A stretch of 64,000 nt of DNA, taken from assembly GCA_964549545.1 (NCBI GenBank), contig CAZJWY010000001.1, positions 23,122-87,121 of the forward strand, read 5' to 3'. The notes beneath the pieces are model-generated. The model was given only the letters and a program-made list of their open reading frames with translations. It searched no databases and was not told where the DNA came from. Position 1 is the stretch's first letter. Each line of letters begins with the position of its first letter. The stretch is from an uncultured Planctomycetaceae bacterium. Its GTDB lineage: Bacteria > Planctomycetota > Planctomycetia > Pirellulales > Lacipirellulaceae. The position numbers and the translations under genes were made by a program. This document shows, in pieces, positions 40,376-51,448 of the stretch.

Positions 40376-40415
40376 TGGGGATGTGGCGGAATTGGCAGAC
40401 GCGCTGGACTTAGGA
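40376..40415 (+). repeat. attL: 40-bp direct repeat = 5' half of tRNA-Leu (acceptor stem to anticodon loop)
   Basis: Identical to 51363-51402 (tGGGGATGTGGCGGAATTGGCAGACGCGCTGGACTTAGGA). Identity stops right after the anticodon loop. Confidence 0.9.
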
Positions 40416-41033: not shown

Positions 41034-41219
41034 CTAACTGAACCGGGCTACGATTGCGTCCAGGTCGGTCTGATCGACAGAGAACATAGTGCCGTGCATG
41101 CAATGGCTCTCCGGCTTAAGGCCGTTCTCTTGCGCCCAGATATGGACGTTCTCACCATTGCGAACACCAGTTAAGGCAACAATCTCTCTAATCGTGCGAA
41201 GAGTTTTCATAACCTTCAT
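41034..41219 (-). CDS. Small HTH protein (AlpA/Xis/Cro-like), 61 aa
   Basis: LRTIREIVALTGVRNGENVHIWAQ resembles an AlpA/excisionase-type HTH. Divergent from the 41446 gene. Confidence 0.5.
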   Translation of the reverse strand: MKVMKTLRTIREIVALTGVRNGENVHIWAQENGLKPESHCMHGTMFSVDQTDLDAIVARFS

Positions 41220-41837: not shown

Positions 41838-42428
41838 ATGAACAAATACGTCGCGGTATATCCGCGTGTTTCGACTAAGCGCCAAGACCTAGCTAGCCAG
41901 ATGCCTGACCTGGAACACTGGGCAGCAGCACAAGGCGAGCCCGTGCAATGGTACAAAGACAAGTTTACCGGCAAGACACTGGAGCGGCCGGGATGGCAGA
42001 AGCTACAGGCCGCGATTGATCGGGGCGAAGTAAGCAAAGTGGTTGTATGGCGACTCGACCGACTAGGGCGAACCGCCAAGGGACTAACGGCGCTATTCGC
42101 AGACCTACAGGAACGCAAGGTAGGGCTAGTGTCGTTGAAGGATGGCATCGACCTATCGACAGCGGCCGGGCGCATGATGGCGAACGTGCTGGCGTCGGTG
42201 GCTCAGTTTGAAACGGAACTGCGCGCGGAGCGTGTGCGCGCTGGTCAGGCTGCTGCAAAATCCAAGGGCAAAGTCATTGGCGGTGGCAAAGCAGGCAGGC
42301 GAGTGCGCTTGACTGAGGAAAAGGAAGACGCCGTTAAGCGTCTGCACAAGTCGGGCGCGTCGATTACAAAGATAGCCAAGACGCTTCAACTGTCACGCCC
42401 TACGGTTTACAAGGTGCTGGACGGCTAG
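41838..42428 (+). CDS. Small serine recombinase (resolvase/invertase family) with C-terminal HTH
   Basis: YPRVSTKRQD (catalytic Ser), VVWRLDRLGR, ...AQFETELRAERV..., C-terminal SITKIAKTLQLSRPTVYKVL. Confidence 0.9.
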   Translation: MNKYVAVYPRVSTKRQDLASQMPDLEHWAAAQGEPVQWYKDKFTGKTLERPGWQKLQAAIDRGEVSKVVVWRLDRLGRTAKGLTALFADLQERKVGLVSLKDGIDLSTAAGRMMANVLASVAQFETELRAERVRAGQAAAKSKGKVIGGGKAGRRVRLTEEKEDAVKRLHKSGASITKIAKTLQLSRPTVYKVLDG

Positions 42429-42484
42429 CGCGCCCAGCAAACATACTTTTCAGTTTCACCTTTTCACCTATTGGAGCCTCATCT

Positions 42485-42709
42485 ATGAATGACACCACAA
42501 GCAAACTCTGTGTTCACACCATCATGGTCGATTCGCCAGAGGGGATGGTCGCCGTGACTATGCGCGACGGGCGAGTCATGTTGGACTACCACGAGATTAG
42601 CGTCTTTGGCGAACCGCACTGGCCGGATGAAACCAGCACTCTAGCCGGGCTCTTAGGCTGCACTGAGCCAGAAGCCCGCGCCCTTGTCGGCATGCTAACA
42701 GATATGTAG
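42485..42709 (+). CDS. Hypothetical protein (74 aa)
   Basis: GGAG 8 nt upstream of the ATG; followed by a canonical intrinsic terminator. Confidence 0.55.
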   Translation: MNDTTSKLCVHTIMVDSPEGMVAVTMRDGRVMLDYHEISVFGEPHWPDETSTLAGLLGCTEPEARALVGMLTDM

Positions 42710-42732
42710 GCTCCATTGCCTACACTTGCTAG

Positions 42733-42768
42733 CCGTCCACTCGATTCGTCGAGTGGACGGTTTTTTTT
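42733..42768 (+). terminator. Intrinsic terminator
   Basis: 12-bp perfect stem CCGTCCACTCGA / TCGAGTGGACGG, TTCG tetraloop, then T8. Confidence 0.85.
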
Positions 42769-42816
42769 GTGCGCCGGGAAGTCTGGCAGGCGGTCGAGAC
42801 GGGCGGGTTATATACA

Positions 42817-42933
42817 CTTGGCAAACCACTCGGCACCACTGGTCACCATGGGTCGCACCTAGGCAAACCACTGGCTACCTTTGGTTCACCACGACGGCAC
42901 CTTGGCAAACCATTGGGATAACTCTGGCATTCC
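42817..42933. repeat. 2.5 tandem 42-bp units = five or six TGG-N(3-4)-CCA sites phased every 21 bp
   Basis: Sites start at 42819, 42840, 42861, 42882 and 42903, plus a degenerate one at 42925. Core is CT(T/A)GGCAAACCA(C/T)T alternating with TGGT(T)CACCA. Confidence 0.75.
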
Positions 42934-43050
42934 GCGAACATGCTACCCGTTCCCTACCGGCCGCGAAGTTTGAAGCGTCCCGACTAATCCGAGCCATCGC
43001 CGATAACGACTGGCGAGTTCCCGAAAATACCACTCTCTGAGGCAGACACG

Positions 43051-46000
43051 ATGGACATTAGCAAATTCGATTTCAGCGCCTTGGACGCGGCTGACGCCGC
43101 GCCAGCAACGAGCATGGACTTCAGCGCACTCGACCTGCCCGAAGATGACGCTTCCGTATATTGGGGCGGCCGTCAAGTTTCCAAGTCGGCGATCTTGAAA
43201 GCAGCCGAACAACGCGGCGTCTCGCCCGATGCGATCATGCGTCTCGATACGTGGCAAGGCAAGACCGAAGATTGGTTAGCTAAGCGACCACTCGGCAACG
43301 TCGCTTTGCGAGTGACCGAAGGTTTCCAAGGTGTTGCTGACACAGTAGTTGGCGGTGTGGCACGGGCGGCTGGCTACCCCGATGTAGCTCGTAACGTCGC
43401 GGCGAACCGTCGCAAGCGCGAAGAATTCTTGTCAATGGTTGAGAAGGGCGGCGACATTGAACGAACGCTCGGTCAACGTGGCGCGCGCATCTTTAACAAC
43501 AGTGTGCAGTCAGCCACCGAAGTTGGGTTGGTCGGCATCAGTAAGGCACCGCTCGCAGTGTATTCCTATGTCGTCGGCTCTGAATTCGAGCGAGCGATGG
43601 ACGATGGCGAACAGCACGGCTTAGAAGGCAGTGACCTTGTTTCTTATGCTGGCCGTCGTGCCGCTATTGAAGGCACCATGTCTCTGCTAATGGGCAAGTT
43701 AGCAAAGAAAGCTGGCGCATATACGCTGGCGGAAAGTGTTAACCCCGCCGCTGGCAACGCCATTCGTAAGTTTCTCGACGCGCCCGACGTTAAGAGCAAA
43801 CTAGTCGCGGCCTCTAAGAGTCTTGGTGGCATGGCTGCCGAAGGTGTCGAGGAACTCCTAACGAACGGCGCTATCCAGGCTAACGACCTGTCTTTCGGCG
43901 TGCGTGACGGTTTCGATTTCAATGAACTGCTCGACGCCGGTTTGTCAGGCGTGACGATGCGCGGCATTAGTCATGTTCGTGATCTGCATGGCGTGCTGAA
44001 TGATTTCGTCAAGAACAAGTTGCCCCACGTAGCCGAGGGCACGAACGCCGCTATGGTTGACTTGGAACGTGGTGTCAACCCGTTCCTTGTGAAAGACCTG
44101 GACGGTGCCGAGTTCGATCGGCAGACGGGCCGCGAGGGCACGACCCCCGAATTCCGTCTGTCTTACCGCGATGCTCTCAATCATTACATGTCGGAAGCCC
44201 GAGCCAACGGCGAGACGGGCTCTCTCGAACGATTAGAGCGGGATGCGCTTGCCATTCACGAGGAAGAACGTCAACGCACTGCGCGCATTCAAGCGAGCAA
44301 GGATAAGGCAGCCGCACAAAAGCAAAACGGCGTGGTAGGCGAGTCGCAAGTAAAAGTAGAGCCGGTGGAAGCGCACGAGCAACCGTCACTTACTGCCGAC
44401 CAACGGGCTACGTTTAACCTGCGTGACTTTGAGGCATTGGTCGTAGAGCCGAAGATTGGTGAGGCTCTGACGCAACCCCAACCCAAGGTAAACCCGTATC
44501 TCCGCGCCCCGTGGGAATCGGAAACACGCGGCCAGCGGCGCGTACGTCGGTTATCCGAGCAAGTCGAGACACACAAGGCGACTATTAAGACATTGCGCTC
44601 CGAAGCGGTCGCCAACAAGCGACTAACGCGCGAGCAACAACAAGCAGCGCTTGAACTGGTGCGGGAAAACATCCCTGCCGAAGATCGTCACAAGTATTTT
44701 CAAGGCGTCATCGAAAGCACTCGCCCGAGCGCCATTAACAAACTGCTGGACCGCGTAGATACCTACATTGGCCAACGTGACCACAGTTTAGCCGTGCAGA
44801 ACCTCAAGGAATCTATCCGCAAGGCTACTAATTTACGCCCTGAATTCGCTCAGCAGGTGCAAAAGTCGCTCAATTCCATCGACCTGAAACGCTTTCGGCA
44901 TCGGGAAGTAGCCGAGACGCTACGGCAATGGCAGCAGGACAACCCGCAAGCCATTATCTCGCCCAAAGAGCAAGGGCTTATCGACCGGCTGGCGCAACAA
45001 AACATCCATAGCATGACGGCAGACGATGTACGGGCGCTGGCGTCACACGTCGAAAGCCTTGCTTACCAAAGCAAGCTGAAAGATACGCTGATCGGTAACG
45101 CGGAAGCGGCAAGCGTGCGCGATACCGCCGACAACATAGTTCGCGAGATTGCGACGGCCCCCCGTAAGGAAATGAAGTCGGACAGTCTGCTAAGTACGTC
45201 GGATGATAACACAACGCGCACGATCGGCAGCTTGGCGCTGCACGAGGTGGCCGAACGCCCCGAGGTAACGCTACGCTCGCTCAGTTCCGAGTTGAGCAAC
45301 CAGATATACGAACCAATCCGCAAGGCGCGCAGCCGGTTCAAGTTGCGCATGGCCAATACGCGCCAATTTATGTCCGACCTGTTTAACAGTGTCGGATTGG
45401 AACATGAGAATTCACTTGCCAAGAGCGTGGCCTATCGAACCGGGCTTCCGAGTACGAAGCTGGAAGGTTGGCGGAGTCACTTGCGAGAGATAAACGGCAC
45501 TCGATTGACACGCGGCGAAGCATTGTGGCTGGCTCTGTCGTCAAAAGACCCTGACGGCATTAAAAACCTGATGGAACATGGCGCGGAGTTGAGCCAAGGC
45601 CGCAAGCTGGCACCCGTCGACCCGCATACACTTGCCCACCTGTTTGATTTCATCGGTCCCGAGGGCGAAACGTGGGTTAATGGCGCGTTCGAGCACCTTA
45701 ATACTTATGTCATTGACGGTGTGAACACGGCTAATGAAAAGATGACCGGCCGACCGCTTACTGAGAAGCGCAATGTTGTTCCGCTTGTGCTGGCCGATGA
45801 CGATTACGCCAAGTTGGTCAGCAAGGGGCGAGCGGGCGAAGTAGAAGCCTTGGCCGATAGTTACGGTCACCTCAAACACCGCGAGGGCGGCGGCCGGGCT
45901 TTGCGTATTCCCGACAACATGGACGCGATTGATATGGTTATGAGCCATGCCGACCGCATGCACCGTTTTGCCGAGTACAGCGTGCCCGCTCGCAATGCTG

Positions 46001-47307
46001 AACTGTTATTGAACGACGCCGATCTCAAGCAGTCGATCAAGGAAAAGAACGGTCACAAAGGTTATGACCAGATTGTCGACGCCGTGCGCTCTGAGGTGGC
46101 GGGCTATCCGCCCGTGGACGGTGCCACGAAGAATATAGCCGCCTTGAATCACGCCGCAGCCGGTGCGTTGATCGTCGCCAAGATACCCGTTATGGCCAAG
46201 CAGCCGCTCGATATGTTGGTCGCTGCCGCAATGGATGAAGGTGGCATAAGCCACTTGGGCAAGGGTCTCGACGAGTTAGCGGCTCGTGGTCCTGCCGCCG
46301 TGCTCACGGAAATGAAGTCGGTACTAGGTCAGCACTCCGGCGAATGGCAGGGTCGTTACGAGGCAGGCAACTACTCGGGCGAGGTGACGAGTGGGTTTAT
46401 CCGCCAGCGTAGCCACTTCCGCCCGTCAACCTTGATCGAGCATGGCGCGGACTCTTTGCAAAAGGCGGAAATGCTAACCGCCGCCATGCCGAACTACTTG
46501 GCAGCCAAGCAAGCTGCCCGTGAACATTTCCGGTTGCAAGCGGGCGACCACAAGGTTTATCTCGACACGCCGGAATGGATAGAGCACGTTGTCGACGGCT
46601 GGGAACGCAAAACAGTGCGCGGTTCTAATTCATCGGATGGCATGGAATTGAGCGGCGCGCTGCGGTTCGCCAAGAAAAACCCGCTCTACAGTCTGGTGGC
46701 TAACTTCTACAACCAAGCCGGTAAAATCTATTCGCTGTTCCCGATGGCTCAGCAGGAGTATCAGAAGGGCAACCACAAGCGGGCCGGTCAGATTGCGGCC
46801 ACCGGCTTAGGTGTCGTGTTGGCCGACGCCATTTTGAGCACGGCACTGGCGACGGGCGACCAGGAAAAGAAACATTCCTTGCCATATCGCACGCTCGCCC
46901 GGTTCGTCGGCGGAATAGCCAGTTTGTTCCCGGCAGGCGGTCAAGAACTTGCCAAGCAAGTTATCGCCCCCGCGTTCGGCATGTCCCGCAGCGGCGGCAA
47001 CCCCATCATGTTGCTTGATCTTGGAATAGGCGCAACGCGCGGCATAACGTCGCTTGCTACGCAGTTGTTGGCCGACGCCGATCGTTCTCTGAAACCGCAA
47101 GACATGTACAAGGCGTGGATTGATATAGGCTACTCCGCTGGCCCACTTCTCGCAATCCCAACGCCCGGTTTCATCGACCTCGGCAAGCGCATTAAAGCAG
47201 GCACGCCCTTCCCCGGTCTCACCGAAGCCGAGCCCAAGCCGGAGCCATTTCGGGAAACGCCGAAACGCCATCGCAAGAGTTTATCAGGTCTGTTTGACAA
47301 CCACTAA
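43051..47307 (+). CDS. Giant ORFan protein (1418 aa)
   Basis: Uninterrupted 4.26-kb ORF with GAGG upstream. N-terminal duplicated DFSALD motif. Long helical middle. Gly/Ala-rich hydrophobic segments in the last ~170 aa. No catalytic motif recognised. Confidence 0.85.
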   Translation: MDISKFDFSALDAADAAPATSMDFSALDLPEDDASVYWGGRQVSKSAILKAAEQRGVSPDAIMRLDTWQGKTEDWLAKRPLGNVALRVTEGFQGVADTVVGGVARAAGYPDVARNVAANRRKREEFLSMVEKGGDIERTLGQRGARIFNNSVQSATEVGLVGISKAPLAVYSYVVGSEFERAMDDGEQHGLEGSDLVSYAGRRAAIEGTMSLLMGKLAKKAGAYTLAESVNPAAGNAIRKFLDAPDVKSKLVAASKSLGGMAAEGVEELLTNGAIQANDLSFGVRDGFDFNELLDAGLSGVTMRGISHVRDLHGVLNDFVKNKLPHVAEGTNAAMVDLERGVNPFLVKDLDGAEFDRQTGREGTTPEFRLSYRDALNHYMSEARANGETGSLERLERDALAIHEEERQRTARIQASKDKAAAQKQNGVVGESQVKVEPVEAHEQPSLTADQRATFNLRDFEALVVEPKIGEALTQPQPKVNPYLRAPWESETRGQRRVRRLSEQVETHKATIKTLRSEAVANKRLTREQQQAALELVRENIPAEDRHKYFQGVIESTRPSAINKLLDRVDTYIGQRDHSLAVQNLKESIRKATNLRPEFAQQVQKSLNSIDLKRFRHREVAETLRQWQQDNPQAIISPKEQGLIDRLAQQNIHSMTADDVRALASHVESLAYQSKLKDTLIGNAEAASVRDTADNIVREIATAPRKEMKSDSLLSTSDDNTTRTIGSLALHEVAERPEVTLRSLSSELSNQIYEPIRKARSRFKLRMANTRQFMSDLFNSVGLEHENSLAKSVAYRTGLPSTKLEGWRSHLREINGTRLTRGEALWLALSSKDPDGIKNLMEHGAELSQGRKLAPVDPHTLAHLFDFIGPEGETWVNGAFEHLNTYVIDGVNTANEKMTGRPLTEKRNVVPLVLADDDYAKLVSKGRAGEVEALADSYGHLKHREGGGRALRIPDNMDAIDMVMSHADRMHRFAEYSVPARNAELLLNDADLKQSIKEKNGHKGYDQIVDAVRSEVAGYPPVDGATKNIAALNHAAAGALIVAKIPVMAKQPLDMLVAAAMDEGGISHLGKGLDELAARGPAAVLTEMKSVLGQHSGEWQGRYEAGNYSGEVTSGFIRQRSHFRPSTLIEHGADSLQKAEMLTAAMPNYLAAKQAAREHFRLQAGDHKVYLDTPEWIEHVVDGWERKTVRGSNSSDGMELSGALRFAKKNPLYSLVANFYNQAGKIYSLFPMAQQEYQKGNHKRAGQIAATGLGVVLADAILSTALATGDQEKKHSLPYRTLARFVGGIASLFPAGGQELAKQVIAPAFGMSRSGGNPIMLLDLGIGATRGITSLATQLLADADRSLKPQDMYKAWIDIGYSAGPLLAIPTPGFIDLGKRIKAGTPFPGLTEAEPKPEPFRETPKRHRKSLSGLFDNH

Positions 47308-47347
47308 GAACCACTAGTCCCCCCTTTTCTTTCGGAGAGTAAACGCA

Positions 47348-48154
47348 ATGAGTACAGAGCCAGAATCACCGCAGCAGAATGACACCCCAGACACTTCGCA
47401 GCAGATATACGGCGGTTCGCTTGCCGGTGGCATAGCGGCATCGCTTGGCGCGAAGAAAGAGCCAAAGCCGTACACCGATCAGGGGCGTGCCTACATTCAC
47501 GCCATGGCTGACGCGACACTTGACCACCGGGAAGCCAAGGCGGCGGTGGAGCGGGATGTTTTCTCCACTGCCATCGAATCCTACAACGCGGCAACAAACG
47601 GCACGAGCAACATCCACGAGGCCTTGCGCGCCGAAGCGGCCGAAGTCGGCGAAGTCAGCAACAAGGATTTCGATGAAGCCCGGTTCGCCAATGAACTCGG
47701 ATTTCAGGCGGACCAATTCAAGCAACTTGGTTTCGAGTCTTACGACGATGCACACTCGTCCGTATCGAAGATGCTTCACAACATGACCGAGAGTGTCGGC
47801 GATGATGGCATTTTGGAAGACTACGCCGCTTTAATGGGCGAGCCCGAGTTGCGGCAGCGGTTGCACACGGAAATAAACTCTTGGCGGTCCCCACGGTTCG
47901 GGCGATCGACTGAGGAGCGCACCGAAGACCAACAATATCACGTCAATCAGATTATCGGCGATATGATTCGCCTGACAAAAGCCCTCGTTCGGCAAGGTCG
48001 ACCGGCCCCGGTCGTTGAGCAAGCATTGCGCCGGGCGCGGTTGGTACGTGATGCCGACTACAAGCCTTCTCACCGCGACCACAAGCCGGAGAAGATCAGC
48101 ACGGCTAATCAGTTCCGAAACATTCACGAACTGTACCAGAACAACCCCTTCTAA
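47348..48154 (+). CDS. Hypothetical protein (268 aa), acidic, with N-terminal glycine-zipper-like segment
   Basis: GGSLAGGIAASLG near the N-terminus. GGAGAG lies about 10 nt upstream of the ATG. Co-directional, 40 bp after the giant ORF. Confidence 0.7.
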   Translation: MSTEPESPQQNDTPDTSQQIYGGSLAGGIAASLGAKKEPKPYTDQGRAYIHAMADATLDHREAKAAVERDVFSTAIESYNAATNGTSNIHEALRAEAAEVGEVSNKDFDEARFANELGFQADQFKQLGFESYDDAHSSVSKMLHNMTESVGDDGILEDYAALMGEPELRQRLHTEINSWRSPRFGRSTEERTEDQQYHVNQIIGDMIRLTKALVRQGRPAPVVEQALRRARLVRDADYKPSHRDHKPEKISTANQFRNIHELYQNNPF

Positions 48155-49591: not shown

Positions 49592-50212
49592 ATGCGACTG
49601 CGCCACTTAGCCAATCAGCTTAAGACTATCGCCTACGTTCTCGATAGTTTCCGCACGAACGGGGTTTCGTCGCTCTCCGCCCCTGTCGTGCTGGCCGATT
49701 TAACTAAGCTGGCGCAGTTGCTTTTCTCTGTCGACCTACTTCTAGCCGATCGTGGGCCAGCCGATATACGCCATCGGCTAACGCGATGCCGTGACGCTGT
49801 GACTGTGTATGTCGCGGAAGTCACCACCGCCGCCATGCTTGGCGATGTTGAACAGGCGAGCAAGCCGACAAGGCATCGGCTAGCTGCTGCCCTTGGGCAG
49901 ATTGAGGATTGCACTCGAACTCTGCTTAAGTTGCTACGTCCGAAAAGATCGAAGCAGCGCAGCGGTTCAGAGTCGCCCGTTACACTTAGTCCGCCCCAGG
50001 TTGCCAAGGCCCTGAGAGTGAGCCCCGACACTGTGCTCAGTTGGATTCGTACGAAGCAGTTACCCGCTGCGAACGTGGCGACTGGCCCGCGTCCGAGGTG
50101 GGTCGTACAGCGGCCCGACCTGGATACATTCCTACAATCACGACGGCCGCAATCGCAGCCGGCACGTAAGAGAAGTAAGCCAGTCGGGGGCTTTAGAAAA
50201 TATCGAGACTAG
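49592..50212 (+). CDS. Xis/MerR-like HTH protein with ~130-aa N-terminal extension
   Basis: C-terminal LSPPQVAKALRVSPDTVLSWIRTKQLPA...RWVVQRPDLDTFL resembles the excisionase-family HTH. 20-bp convergent overlap with int. Confidence 0.65.
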   Translation: MRLRHLANQLKTIAYVLDSFRTNGVSSLSAPVVLADLTKLAQLLFSVDLLLADRGPADIRHRLTRCRDAVTVYVAEVTTAAMLGDVEQASKPTRHRLAAALGQIEDCTRTLLKLLRPKRSKQRSGSESPVTLSPPQVAKALRVSPDTVLSWIRTKQLPAANVATGPRPRWVVQRPDLDTFLQSRRPQSQPARKRSKPVGGFRKYRD

Positions 50213-51281: not shown

Positions 51282-51327
51282 TCCTAGCTCCGGGTGTCGG
51301 CGCGGGTGTCGTTAGGATTAAGTATGT

Positions 51328-51356
51328 TTGCCAAAAGTCAAAAAACAACGTAAATT
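51328..51356 (+). promoter_or_regulatory. Element-borne promoter-like sequence upstream of the intact tRNA-Leu
   Basis: TTGCCA-17 nt-TAAATT ending 7 nt before tRNA position 1. Same architecture as 40333-40361. Confidence 0.45.
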
Positions 51357-51363
51357 TAAGCCT

Positions 51364-51448
51364 GGGGATGTGGCGGAATTGGCAGACGCGCTGGACTTAG
51401 GATCCAGTTCCTTCACCGGAGTGCAGGTTCAACTCCTGTCATCCCCAC
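51364..51448 (+). tRNA. tRNA-Leu (anticodon UAG), type II with long variable arm
   Basis: Acceptor GGGGATG/CATCCCC. Anticodon stem CTGGA/TCCAG with loop CTTAGGA. Variable arm TTCCTTCACCGGAGT. T-arm GCAGG-TTCAACT-CCTGT. CCA not fully encoded. Confidence 0.9.

Follow-up and report, generated by a model that had tools for sequence, protein, structure and literature searches.

A helically phased array of sequence boxes upstream of the cargo operon in a planctomycete integrative element

What might a short run of evenly spaced sequence boxes be doing between a strong terminator and a giant gene? The question is raised by positions 42817 to 42942 (+) of a 64,000-nt stretch of DNA, here called the window, on contig CAZJWY010000001.1 of an uncultured Planctomycetaceae bacterium whose assembly (GCA_964549545.1) comprises 5.2 Mb in 295 contigs. 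The boxes lie within an 11-kb integrative element bounded by a 40-bp tRNA-Leu(TAG) direct repeat, ahead of a cargo operon whose first gene encodes a 1418-aa protein of phage internal-virion type. In this study, we describe the anatomy, phasing, uniqueness, non-coding nature and predicted curvature of this array, which is real, far beyond chance and statistically exceptional. Reading from the sequence, we consider its likeliest role to be that of a curved platform on which a cooperative regulator of the cargo operon docks, the proteins named below as binders being candidates only.

Anatomy and helical phasing of the array

The six TGG/CCA sites that an earlier note on this DNA had listed are all present, namely TGGCAAACCA at 42819, TGGTCACCA at 42840, AGGCAAACCA at 42861, TGGTTCACCA at 42882, TGGCAAACCA again at 42903 and TGGCATTCC at 42925, with start-to-start distances of 21, 21, 21, 21 and 22 bp. 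The array can be read as three 42-bp units, as six 21-bp half-units or as about eleven 10.5-bp turns of the motif mACCAyTGG. Each 42-bp unit comprises a near-invariant 16-nt A-box (CTTGGCAAACCAYTSG) and, 21 bp further on, a B-box (TGGT(T)CACCA), and a repeat finder recovered a 17–20-nt box three times at intervals of exactly 42 and 42 bp. The A-boxes are CTTGGCAAACCACTCGG (42817–42833, +), CTAGGCAAACCACTGGC (42859–42875, +) and CTTGGCAAACCATTGGG (42901–42917, +), with scores of 27.8, 26.8 and 28.1 bits, respectively, on a position weight matrix (PWM). The B-boxes are TGGTCACCA (42840–42848, +), TGGTTCACCA (42882–42891, +) and TGGCATTCC (42925–42933, +), the last being degenerate and situated at the array edge.

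Alignment of the three units revealed that 13 of the 16 A-box columns are invariant, whereas just 1 of the unit's other 26 columns is (Fisher p = 3e-7, for A-box limits picked after the alignment had been viewed). The B-box is 9 bp long in unit 1 and 10 bp long in unit 2, with one extra base later in unit 1 restoring the 21-bp register. Because the register survives this difference, the spacing itself appears to be conserved, and the combination of conserved boxes with diverged spacers of kept length points to selection on binding sites rather than to a neutral repeat. These observations bear on an alternative reading, that the array is a minisatellite, that is, a decaying tandem duplication at the junction of phage cargo and island backbone that has no specific function and acts, if at all, through its curvature alone. 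Such a reading would agree with the fact that the array is not conserved in any relative examined, and a look-alike repeat of 18 22-bp units in a metagenome contig (L163, see below) shows that sequences of this type expand as simple tandem repeats. However, the mismatches are unevenly distributed between core and remainder, the register is preserved across an indel, and the same operon has a related site at a distance of 4.4 kb. We therefore consider a minisatellite unlikely.

Autocorrelation of the array gave peaks at 10–11, 21–22, 32, 42–43 (identity 0.505, z 5.5), 53 and 63–64 bp, with troughs at the half periods, and the observed maximum was reached by only 0.05% of dinucleotide-preserving shuffles. 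In a Rayleigh phase test on the top strand, 13 GG (R 0.84), 10 CC (R 0.95) and 9 ACC (R 0.96) words were locked to 10.5 bp, the GG and CC words lying half a turn apart. Nine ACC-anchored units follow one another on the same strand at a spacing of 10–12 bp. Since the words lock to 10.5 bp and the same test detected no additional concentration of them at 21 or 42 bp, the basic unit is one helical turn, mACCAyTGG, and the patterns at 21 and 42 bp arise from its higher-order grouping. The earlier note had phased the sites at 21 bp and placed them all on one face of the DNA; the spacing and the one-face alignment hold good, but the basic period judged by word phasing is about 10.5 bp, not 21 bp. 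The top strand carries ACCA six times and TGGT twice, and 42 C against 29 G. Given this strand asymmetry, the array is best described as about eleven direct repeats, which also form small TGG-N3-4-CCA palindromes.

A helical-harmonic score, which was designed on the array itself after it had been seen, placed the array (z 11.8) at the head of the genome's 5.14 million windows of 130 bp, all the others staying below 90% of its score. A dinucleotide wedge model with approximate parameters predicted that the axis is deflected by ~118 degrees over 105 bp, more than anywhere else in the 64-kb window, and put the curvature of the array above the 99.9th percentile genome-wide.

The motif is also confined to this element. 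The word TTGGCAAACCA occurs five times in the 5.2-Mb genome, twice within the array. A 17-nt A-box matrix gave 27–28 bits on the three copies and 19.7 bits on the next best site of the genome, and its lower-scoring sites elsewhere are scattered singletons. Because the motif is unique to the element, a host regulon that uses it seems unlikely.

An isolated site resembling unit 1, TTTGACAACCACTAAGAACCACTAGTC (47291–47321, +), overlaps the stop codon of the 1418-aa gene and lies 27–57 bp 5' of the ATG of the 268-aa gene that comes next in the operon, just 5' of its ribosome-binding site. It matches unit 1 at 19 of 27 positions (22 of 31 by direct reading of the two sequences). The word ACCACT-N4-ACCACT, examined after the match had been noticed, occurs only twice in the genome with both strands counted together, at 42825 in the array and at 47300. 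The last ~25 residues of the 1418-aa protein are not conserved among its homologues, so that the DNA at 47300 would be free to carry a site. We take the 47300 site to be a real, weaker companion of the array.

A non-coding segment between a terminator and the cargo operon

Several open reading frames (ORFs) run across the array, one of them of 104 aa (42726–43040). This ORF was rejected as a gene. Its GC content at the three codon positions is flat (0.58/0.58/0.53, as against 0.59–0.66/0.41–0.50/0.58–0.72 in real genes), its codon log-odds is −0.11, where the real genes tested, with one exception, range from +0.08 to +0.31, and its start lies within the terminator hairpin. No match was found in Pfam or NCBIfam, and an exhaustive HMMER search of 1.84 billion representative proteins returned two hits, both of them translated, unrelated tandem DNA repeats. 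With a non-coding composition, no family and no real homologue on the side of the ORF, the reading of the earlier note stands against the objection of a coding repeat that it had itself raised. The other four small ORFs across the array look non-coding too. Nor is the array what is left of the gene found 5' of the giant gene in phages: tblastn with the upstream phage genes found no pseudogene remnant. It is not a structured RNA either: no relevant Rfam match was obtained, and both strands fold no better than shuffled sequences (z +1.5 and +0.7).

Upstream of the array, the operon encoding a 129-aa protein, a small serine recombinase and a 74-aa protein ends in an intrinsic terminator (42731–42768, +), composed of a 14-pair stem (42731–42762) with 8 G–C pairs, a 4-nt loop and a T8 run. 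Both the canonical terminator of the earlier note and its placing of the array between terminator and giant ORF are thus upheld, the array lying 118–232 bp, or on wider limits 108–234 bp, 5' of the ATG at 43051. Between array and ATG is a 108-bp leader (42943–43050, +), presumed to be the promoter region of the cargo operon, and an SD (Shine–Dalgarno)-like GAGG was read by eye 9 nt 5' of the ATG. Because the strong terminator blocks read-through from upstream, the cargo-operon promoter must lie in this leader. The first gene 3' of the array is the 1418-aa cargo gene (43051–47307, +), which makes up the cargo operon together with the 268-aa gene (47348–48154), whose ATG is 27 bp past the unit-1-like site, and four small paralogues. 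A sigma-54 promoter (GG-N10-GC) was considered and dismissed, for in array and leader, read by eye, only unit 2 fits the invariant dinucleotides.

A possible docking platform and its rivals

We favour, tentatively and with somewhat less than even confidence, the view that the array serves the cargo operon as a cooperative operator or an upstream-activating platform, similar to the arrays of Apl, Cox and BldC; among the functions put forward in the earlier note, cooperative operator control of the cargo operon fits best. We infer that a protein binds the array and affects transcription, and we name possible binders on the same footing. The about eleven same-strand 10.5-bp units would put every recognition box on one face of a curved 125-bp segment, where a small DNA-binding protein could bind the boxes cooperatively, with one subunit or dimer per helical turn. 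The bound protein would bend or wrap the DNA and thereby switch the downstream promoter, while the 47300 site would provide a second, weaker contact ahead of the 268-aa gene. The likeliest binders would be a winged-helix protein of the excisionase/BldC class (the 206-aa HTH_17 protein of the element, or its 61-aa putative helix-turn-helix protein) or a protein of an infecting phage.

Arrays of this design are well documented. In coliphage 186, the sites of Apl are spaced 10–11 bp throughout, with seven of them lying between pR and pL and five at attP; Apl needs three adjacent sites, and a three-operator segment is bent by ~87 degrees (PMC7498355). P2 Cox, whose boxes occur at Pc, at attP and at PLL, uses at least six cox-boxes 10–11 bp apart, with the DNA proposed to wrap round a Cox spiral, and it represses Pc and activates the late promoter PLL of the satellite P4 from upstream boxes (PMC3936717). 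BldC binds as head-to-tail multimers, with one protomer per DNA turn, a variable number of direct repeats and strong DNA distortion (PMC5859096), and RdfS1271 binds ~170 bp 5' of rdfG and again over the rdfG ribosome-binding site (PMC11963761). The position of our array, after a terminator and upstream of the first cargo gene, fits this picture, since Cox at PLL also acts from upstream boxes and RdfS1271 also binds upstream.

With Apl and Cox the array shares at least five same-strand boxes one helical turn (10–11 bp) apart, and the parallel would extend to cooperative binding with bending or wrapping of at least 70 bp and to control of transcription away from att. That the element itself encodes a protein of the same winged-helix class, HTH_17/BldC, also counts for the platform. 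With BldC it has in common the direct repeats and a spacing that would allow one protomer per turn, together with a weak match between BldC and the HTH_17 domain of the element. The likeness is not complete. Apl and Cox boxes recur at att, whereas the att arms of the element are without the motif, and the boxes of the array, partly palindromic, form super-units of 21 and 42 bp. The boxes of BldC are AT-rich (AATTNNNNC) in contrast to the GC-rich ACCAyTGG of the array, and the 206-aa protein has an N-terminal extension.

A number of results weigh against a docking platform of this kind. Outside the array, a 10-mer PWM gave background density only and no cluster near attL or attR. The partial palindromes of the A- and B-boxes (TGG-N3-4-CCA) would suit dimers better than head-to-tail monomers of the Xis/BldC type. 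A promoter scan found no consensus sigma-70 promoter in the 108-bp leader, although this would suit an activator-dependent promoter. The relatives, too, are unhelpful. The giant protein has five homologues (39–66% identity), four of them in phage-like contexts, where the homologue directly follows a 384–418-aa gene (111 aa at the contig end in one); in all four, stop and start codons overlap or nearly abut, leaving no intergenic gap and no array. The fifth homologue (42%) is on a sister island (L153–L155, L153 being a contig of Logan SRR29782965) which carries a tyrosine integrase, an HTH_17 protein, a small serine recombinase, a homologue of the 268-aa protein and an HNH gene in a different gene order; eight small genes are found in the array's place, and no periodic array is present anywhere on this island. 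In L147 and L148, a 35%-identical homologue of the 206-aa protein (60% in the HTH) adjoins an integrase, again with no array. The related elements examined thus gave no case in which protein and array occur together, and the conservation of the phasing in homologous elements raised by the earlier note was not found, as none of those examined carries the array. Taken together, the absence of the motif at att, the partial palindromes and the lack of a co-occurring relative speak against a simple copy of Apl or Cox, and the binder may therefore be the 61-aa protein, an island-orphan protein or a phage protein. As a separate observation on the sister island, an 816-bp intergenic region with inverted repeats of its own stands where the array would be.

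Wider searches gave a similar outcome. At the DNA level, no relative was found among 40 related genomes, and 400 genomes of the phylum contained neither a tandem A-box pair nor a match to the giant protein. When viral, genome and metagenome collections, IMG/VR included, were scanned for the pattern, they yielded hundreds of unrelated tandem repeats and coding duplications, and a literature search for the box sequence as a word found primers only. The sole scan match resembling the A-box beyond the letters searched was L163 (metagenome contig Ga0116158_10032736), in which ~18 tandem 22-bp units CTTGGCAAACCATTCGYCACGG occupy positions 760–1160. Over a 17-nt core they differ very little from the A-box, scoring 26.3 bits on its matrix; they lie in an ordinary intergenic region 5' of a gene for a VWA-domain lipoprotein, on an unrelated 3.8-kb chromosomal contig. 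The likeness may reflect a shared binding specificity or may be coincidental (rough p ~0.1 after ~300 repeat families) and is not used here as support. The array is an orphan instance of a known design, that of one-per-turn cooperative sites on curved DNA. Because it has no conserved relatives and follows a well-known design, its importance in general terms is limited. Should it indeed be a docking platform, however, the array is the control point of an otherwise opaque 11-kb island with a giant phage internal-virion-type protein, and the identity of the binder would reveal the timing of, and the reason for, cargo expression and would tell whether the island is a phage satellite.

The same phasing and curvature call to mind an origin of replication of the iteron type, or a centromere for plasmid-like partition of the excised circle, with an initiator or a centromere-binding protein on the 21-bp repeats. 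Iteron origins and parC-type centromeres classically show direct repeats at 21–22 bp, strict phasing and curvature: the iteron origins of RepA/Rep_3 plasmids, lambda ori and the parC/ParR centromeres all have phased tandem repeats of 20–22 or 10–11 bp on curved DNA. A related half-site upstream of another gene furthermore recalls autoregulatory half-iterons. These systems differ from ours, however, in their initiator or partition genes and in their AT-rich unwinding element. Searches of the element's proteins against Pfam, PHROGs and NCBIfam detected no Rep, primase, helicase, ParA/ParM or ParB/ParR domain. The GC content of the array is 56%, and no AT-rich unwinding region lies beside it; the low-GC 60-bp windows nearest to it have minima of 0.38–0.43 (42426–42529 and 43016–43076), and the lowest of the element lie near attL. 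The array region, read by eye, contains no DnaA-box cluster. We consider an origin or centromere rather unlikely. Of the iteron-like array proposed in the earlier note, what stands is a unique, non-coding and face-aligned array of phase-locked, conserved boxes, while a use in replication or partition would call for Rep/Par genes and an AT-rich region, neither of which was found.

The 268-aa protein was also considered as a Rep and rejected. Its homologue in the sister island (27% identity, E = 3e-8) lies 5' of the giant gene, it looks structural, and its sole replication-type match is sub-threshold and covers 70 residues. The sub-threshold matches of this protein, to the N-terminal domain of AEP primase (E = 0.014) and to spanin (E = 0.0045), are mutually inconsistent.

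An alternative of a different kind places the recogniser outside the island. The array would then be a recognition site for a helper phage, either a pac-type packaging site on a small-terminase ring or a trans-activation platform for one of the helper's regulators, and the island a phage satellite. The island has virion-type cargo but no capsid, tail or terminase genes, and a curved DNA with about eleven boxes, one per turn, would lend itself to wrapping around an oligomeric ring; the action of P2 Cox on P4 offers a precedent for activation (PMC3936717). However, nothing links the array with a terminase, the 11–13 kb of phage contigs (runs SRR26786848 and SRR26786851) that carry the closest homologue of the giant protein (66%) are without the motif, the host genome has no prophage with a related gene, and no viral contig in the collections scanned carries the box combination. 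We regard a helper-phage site as rather unlikely. A more specific form, in which a ring or filament protein of an infecting short-tailed phage (a small terminase or a late regulator) wraps the array and so packages the island or switches on its cargo, has a similarly slim chance; if true, it would be the first recognisable satellite–helper interface in Planctomycetota.

Lastly, the nearness of the array to the recombinase gene (390 bp past its stop), its size and its three-part layout resemble a res site, and it could be an accessory or crossover site of the small serine recombinase, with three ~31-bp A+B dimer subsites 42 bp apart over ~115 bp. The res sites of Tn3 and gamma-delta are likewise ~115–120 bp long, have three subsites and adjoin a small serine recombinase gene. 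The recombinase (196 aa, Resolvase + HTH_7; 41838–42428, +) has many homologues at 78–84% identity, but in six loci with such homologues no cluster of A- or B-boxes was found in the 0–6 kb read on either side, even though all six share the recognition helix LSRPTVYK (LSRPTIYK in one). Unlike the Tn3 and gamma-delta subsites, the A- and B-boxes do not clearly repeat a single 12-bp half-site in inverted form, having only TGG...CCA in common, and there is no second copy of the array with which to recombine. A res-like site is accordingly most improbable, and the recombinase, whose orthologues with the same recognition helix have no array nearby, was rejected as the binder. Concerning the contigs themselves, four of the six with recombinase homologues (L147–L150, 78–81% identity) end 6–460 bp past the recombinase gene, which suggests that assemblies break where the conserved recombinase backbone meets strain-variable cargo.

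Candidate binding proteins and other features of the island

Coming back to the docking platform, the 206-aa protein (49592–50212, +) is a candidate binder by virtue of its C-terminal winged helix of the excisionase/BldC class. It matches Pfam HTH_17 (E = 7e-10), TIGR01764 'excise' (E = 2e-4) and, in NCBIfam, HTH_BldC (E = 0.03). The only PDB sequence matches of the domain are the weak ones to BldC, 6AMK (E = 0.1) and 6AMA (E = 0.5), and the N-terminal extension amounts to 130 residues. The other candidate of the element, the 61-aa protein (41034–41219, −), has no family match, and we read it as a putative small helix-turn-helix protein; a single-sequence, low-confidence model (predicted local distance difference test [pLDDT] 58) has the order helix–helix–hairpin–helix. 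The 74-aa protein, encoded by an orphan gene directly 5' of the terminator (42485–42709, +) whose coding signal is weak (codon log-odds 0.08), lacks any homologue among 5.8 billion proteins; its model, also single-sequence and of low confidence (pLDDT 60), consists of three strands and two helices and is not a ribbon-helix-helix. Fold searches with the 61-aa and 74-aa proteins gave no significant match. The boxes also resemble TGGT-Nx-ACCA operators, which we take to be of GntR type. The element has no GntR protein, nor does the genome show any enrichment of B-box words, and the GntR operator reading was rejected.

The perfect 40-bp repeat that bounds the element (40376–40415 and 51363–51402) corresponds to the 5' half of tRNA-Leu(TAG). 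From left to right, the element consists of the 61-aa gene on the minus strand, the 129-aa/serine recombinase/74-aa operon, the terminator, the array and the leader, followed by the 1418-aa gene, the 268-aa gene, four ~100-aa genes, the gene for the 206-aa HTH_17 protein and a tyrosine integrase gene adjoining the tRNA. The host genes around the element are ordinary and code for MnmE, for a Ser/Thr kinase and for a YidC that has a PDZ domain. A single copy of TTGGCAAACAT (51324–51334, −), placed between the integrase start and the tRNA/att core, matches the A-box core at 9 of 11 positions, which is about the chance level. A 28-nt imperfect inverted repeat (71%; 42373–42400 and 42959–42986) encloses the 74-aa gene, the terminator and the array; as an inversion would destroy the DNA-binding end of the recombinase, this repeat is probably due to chance.

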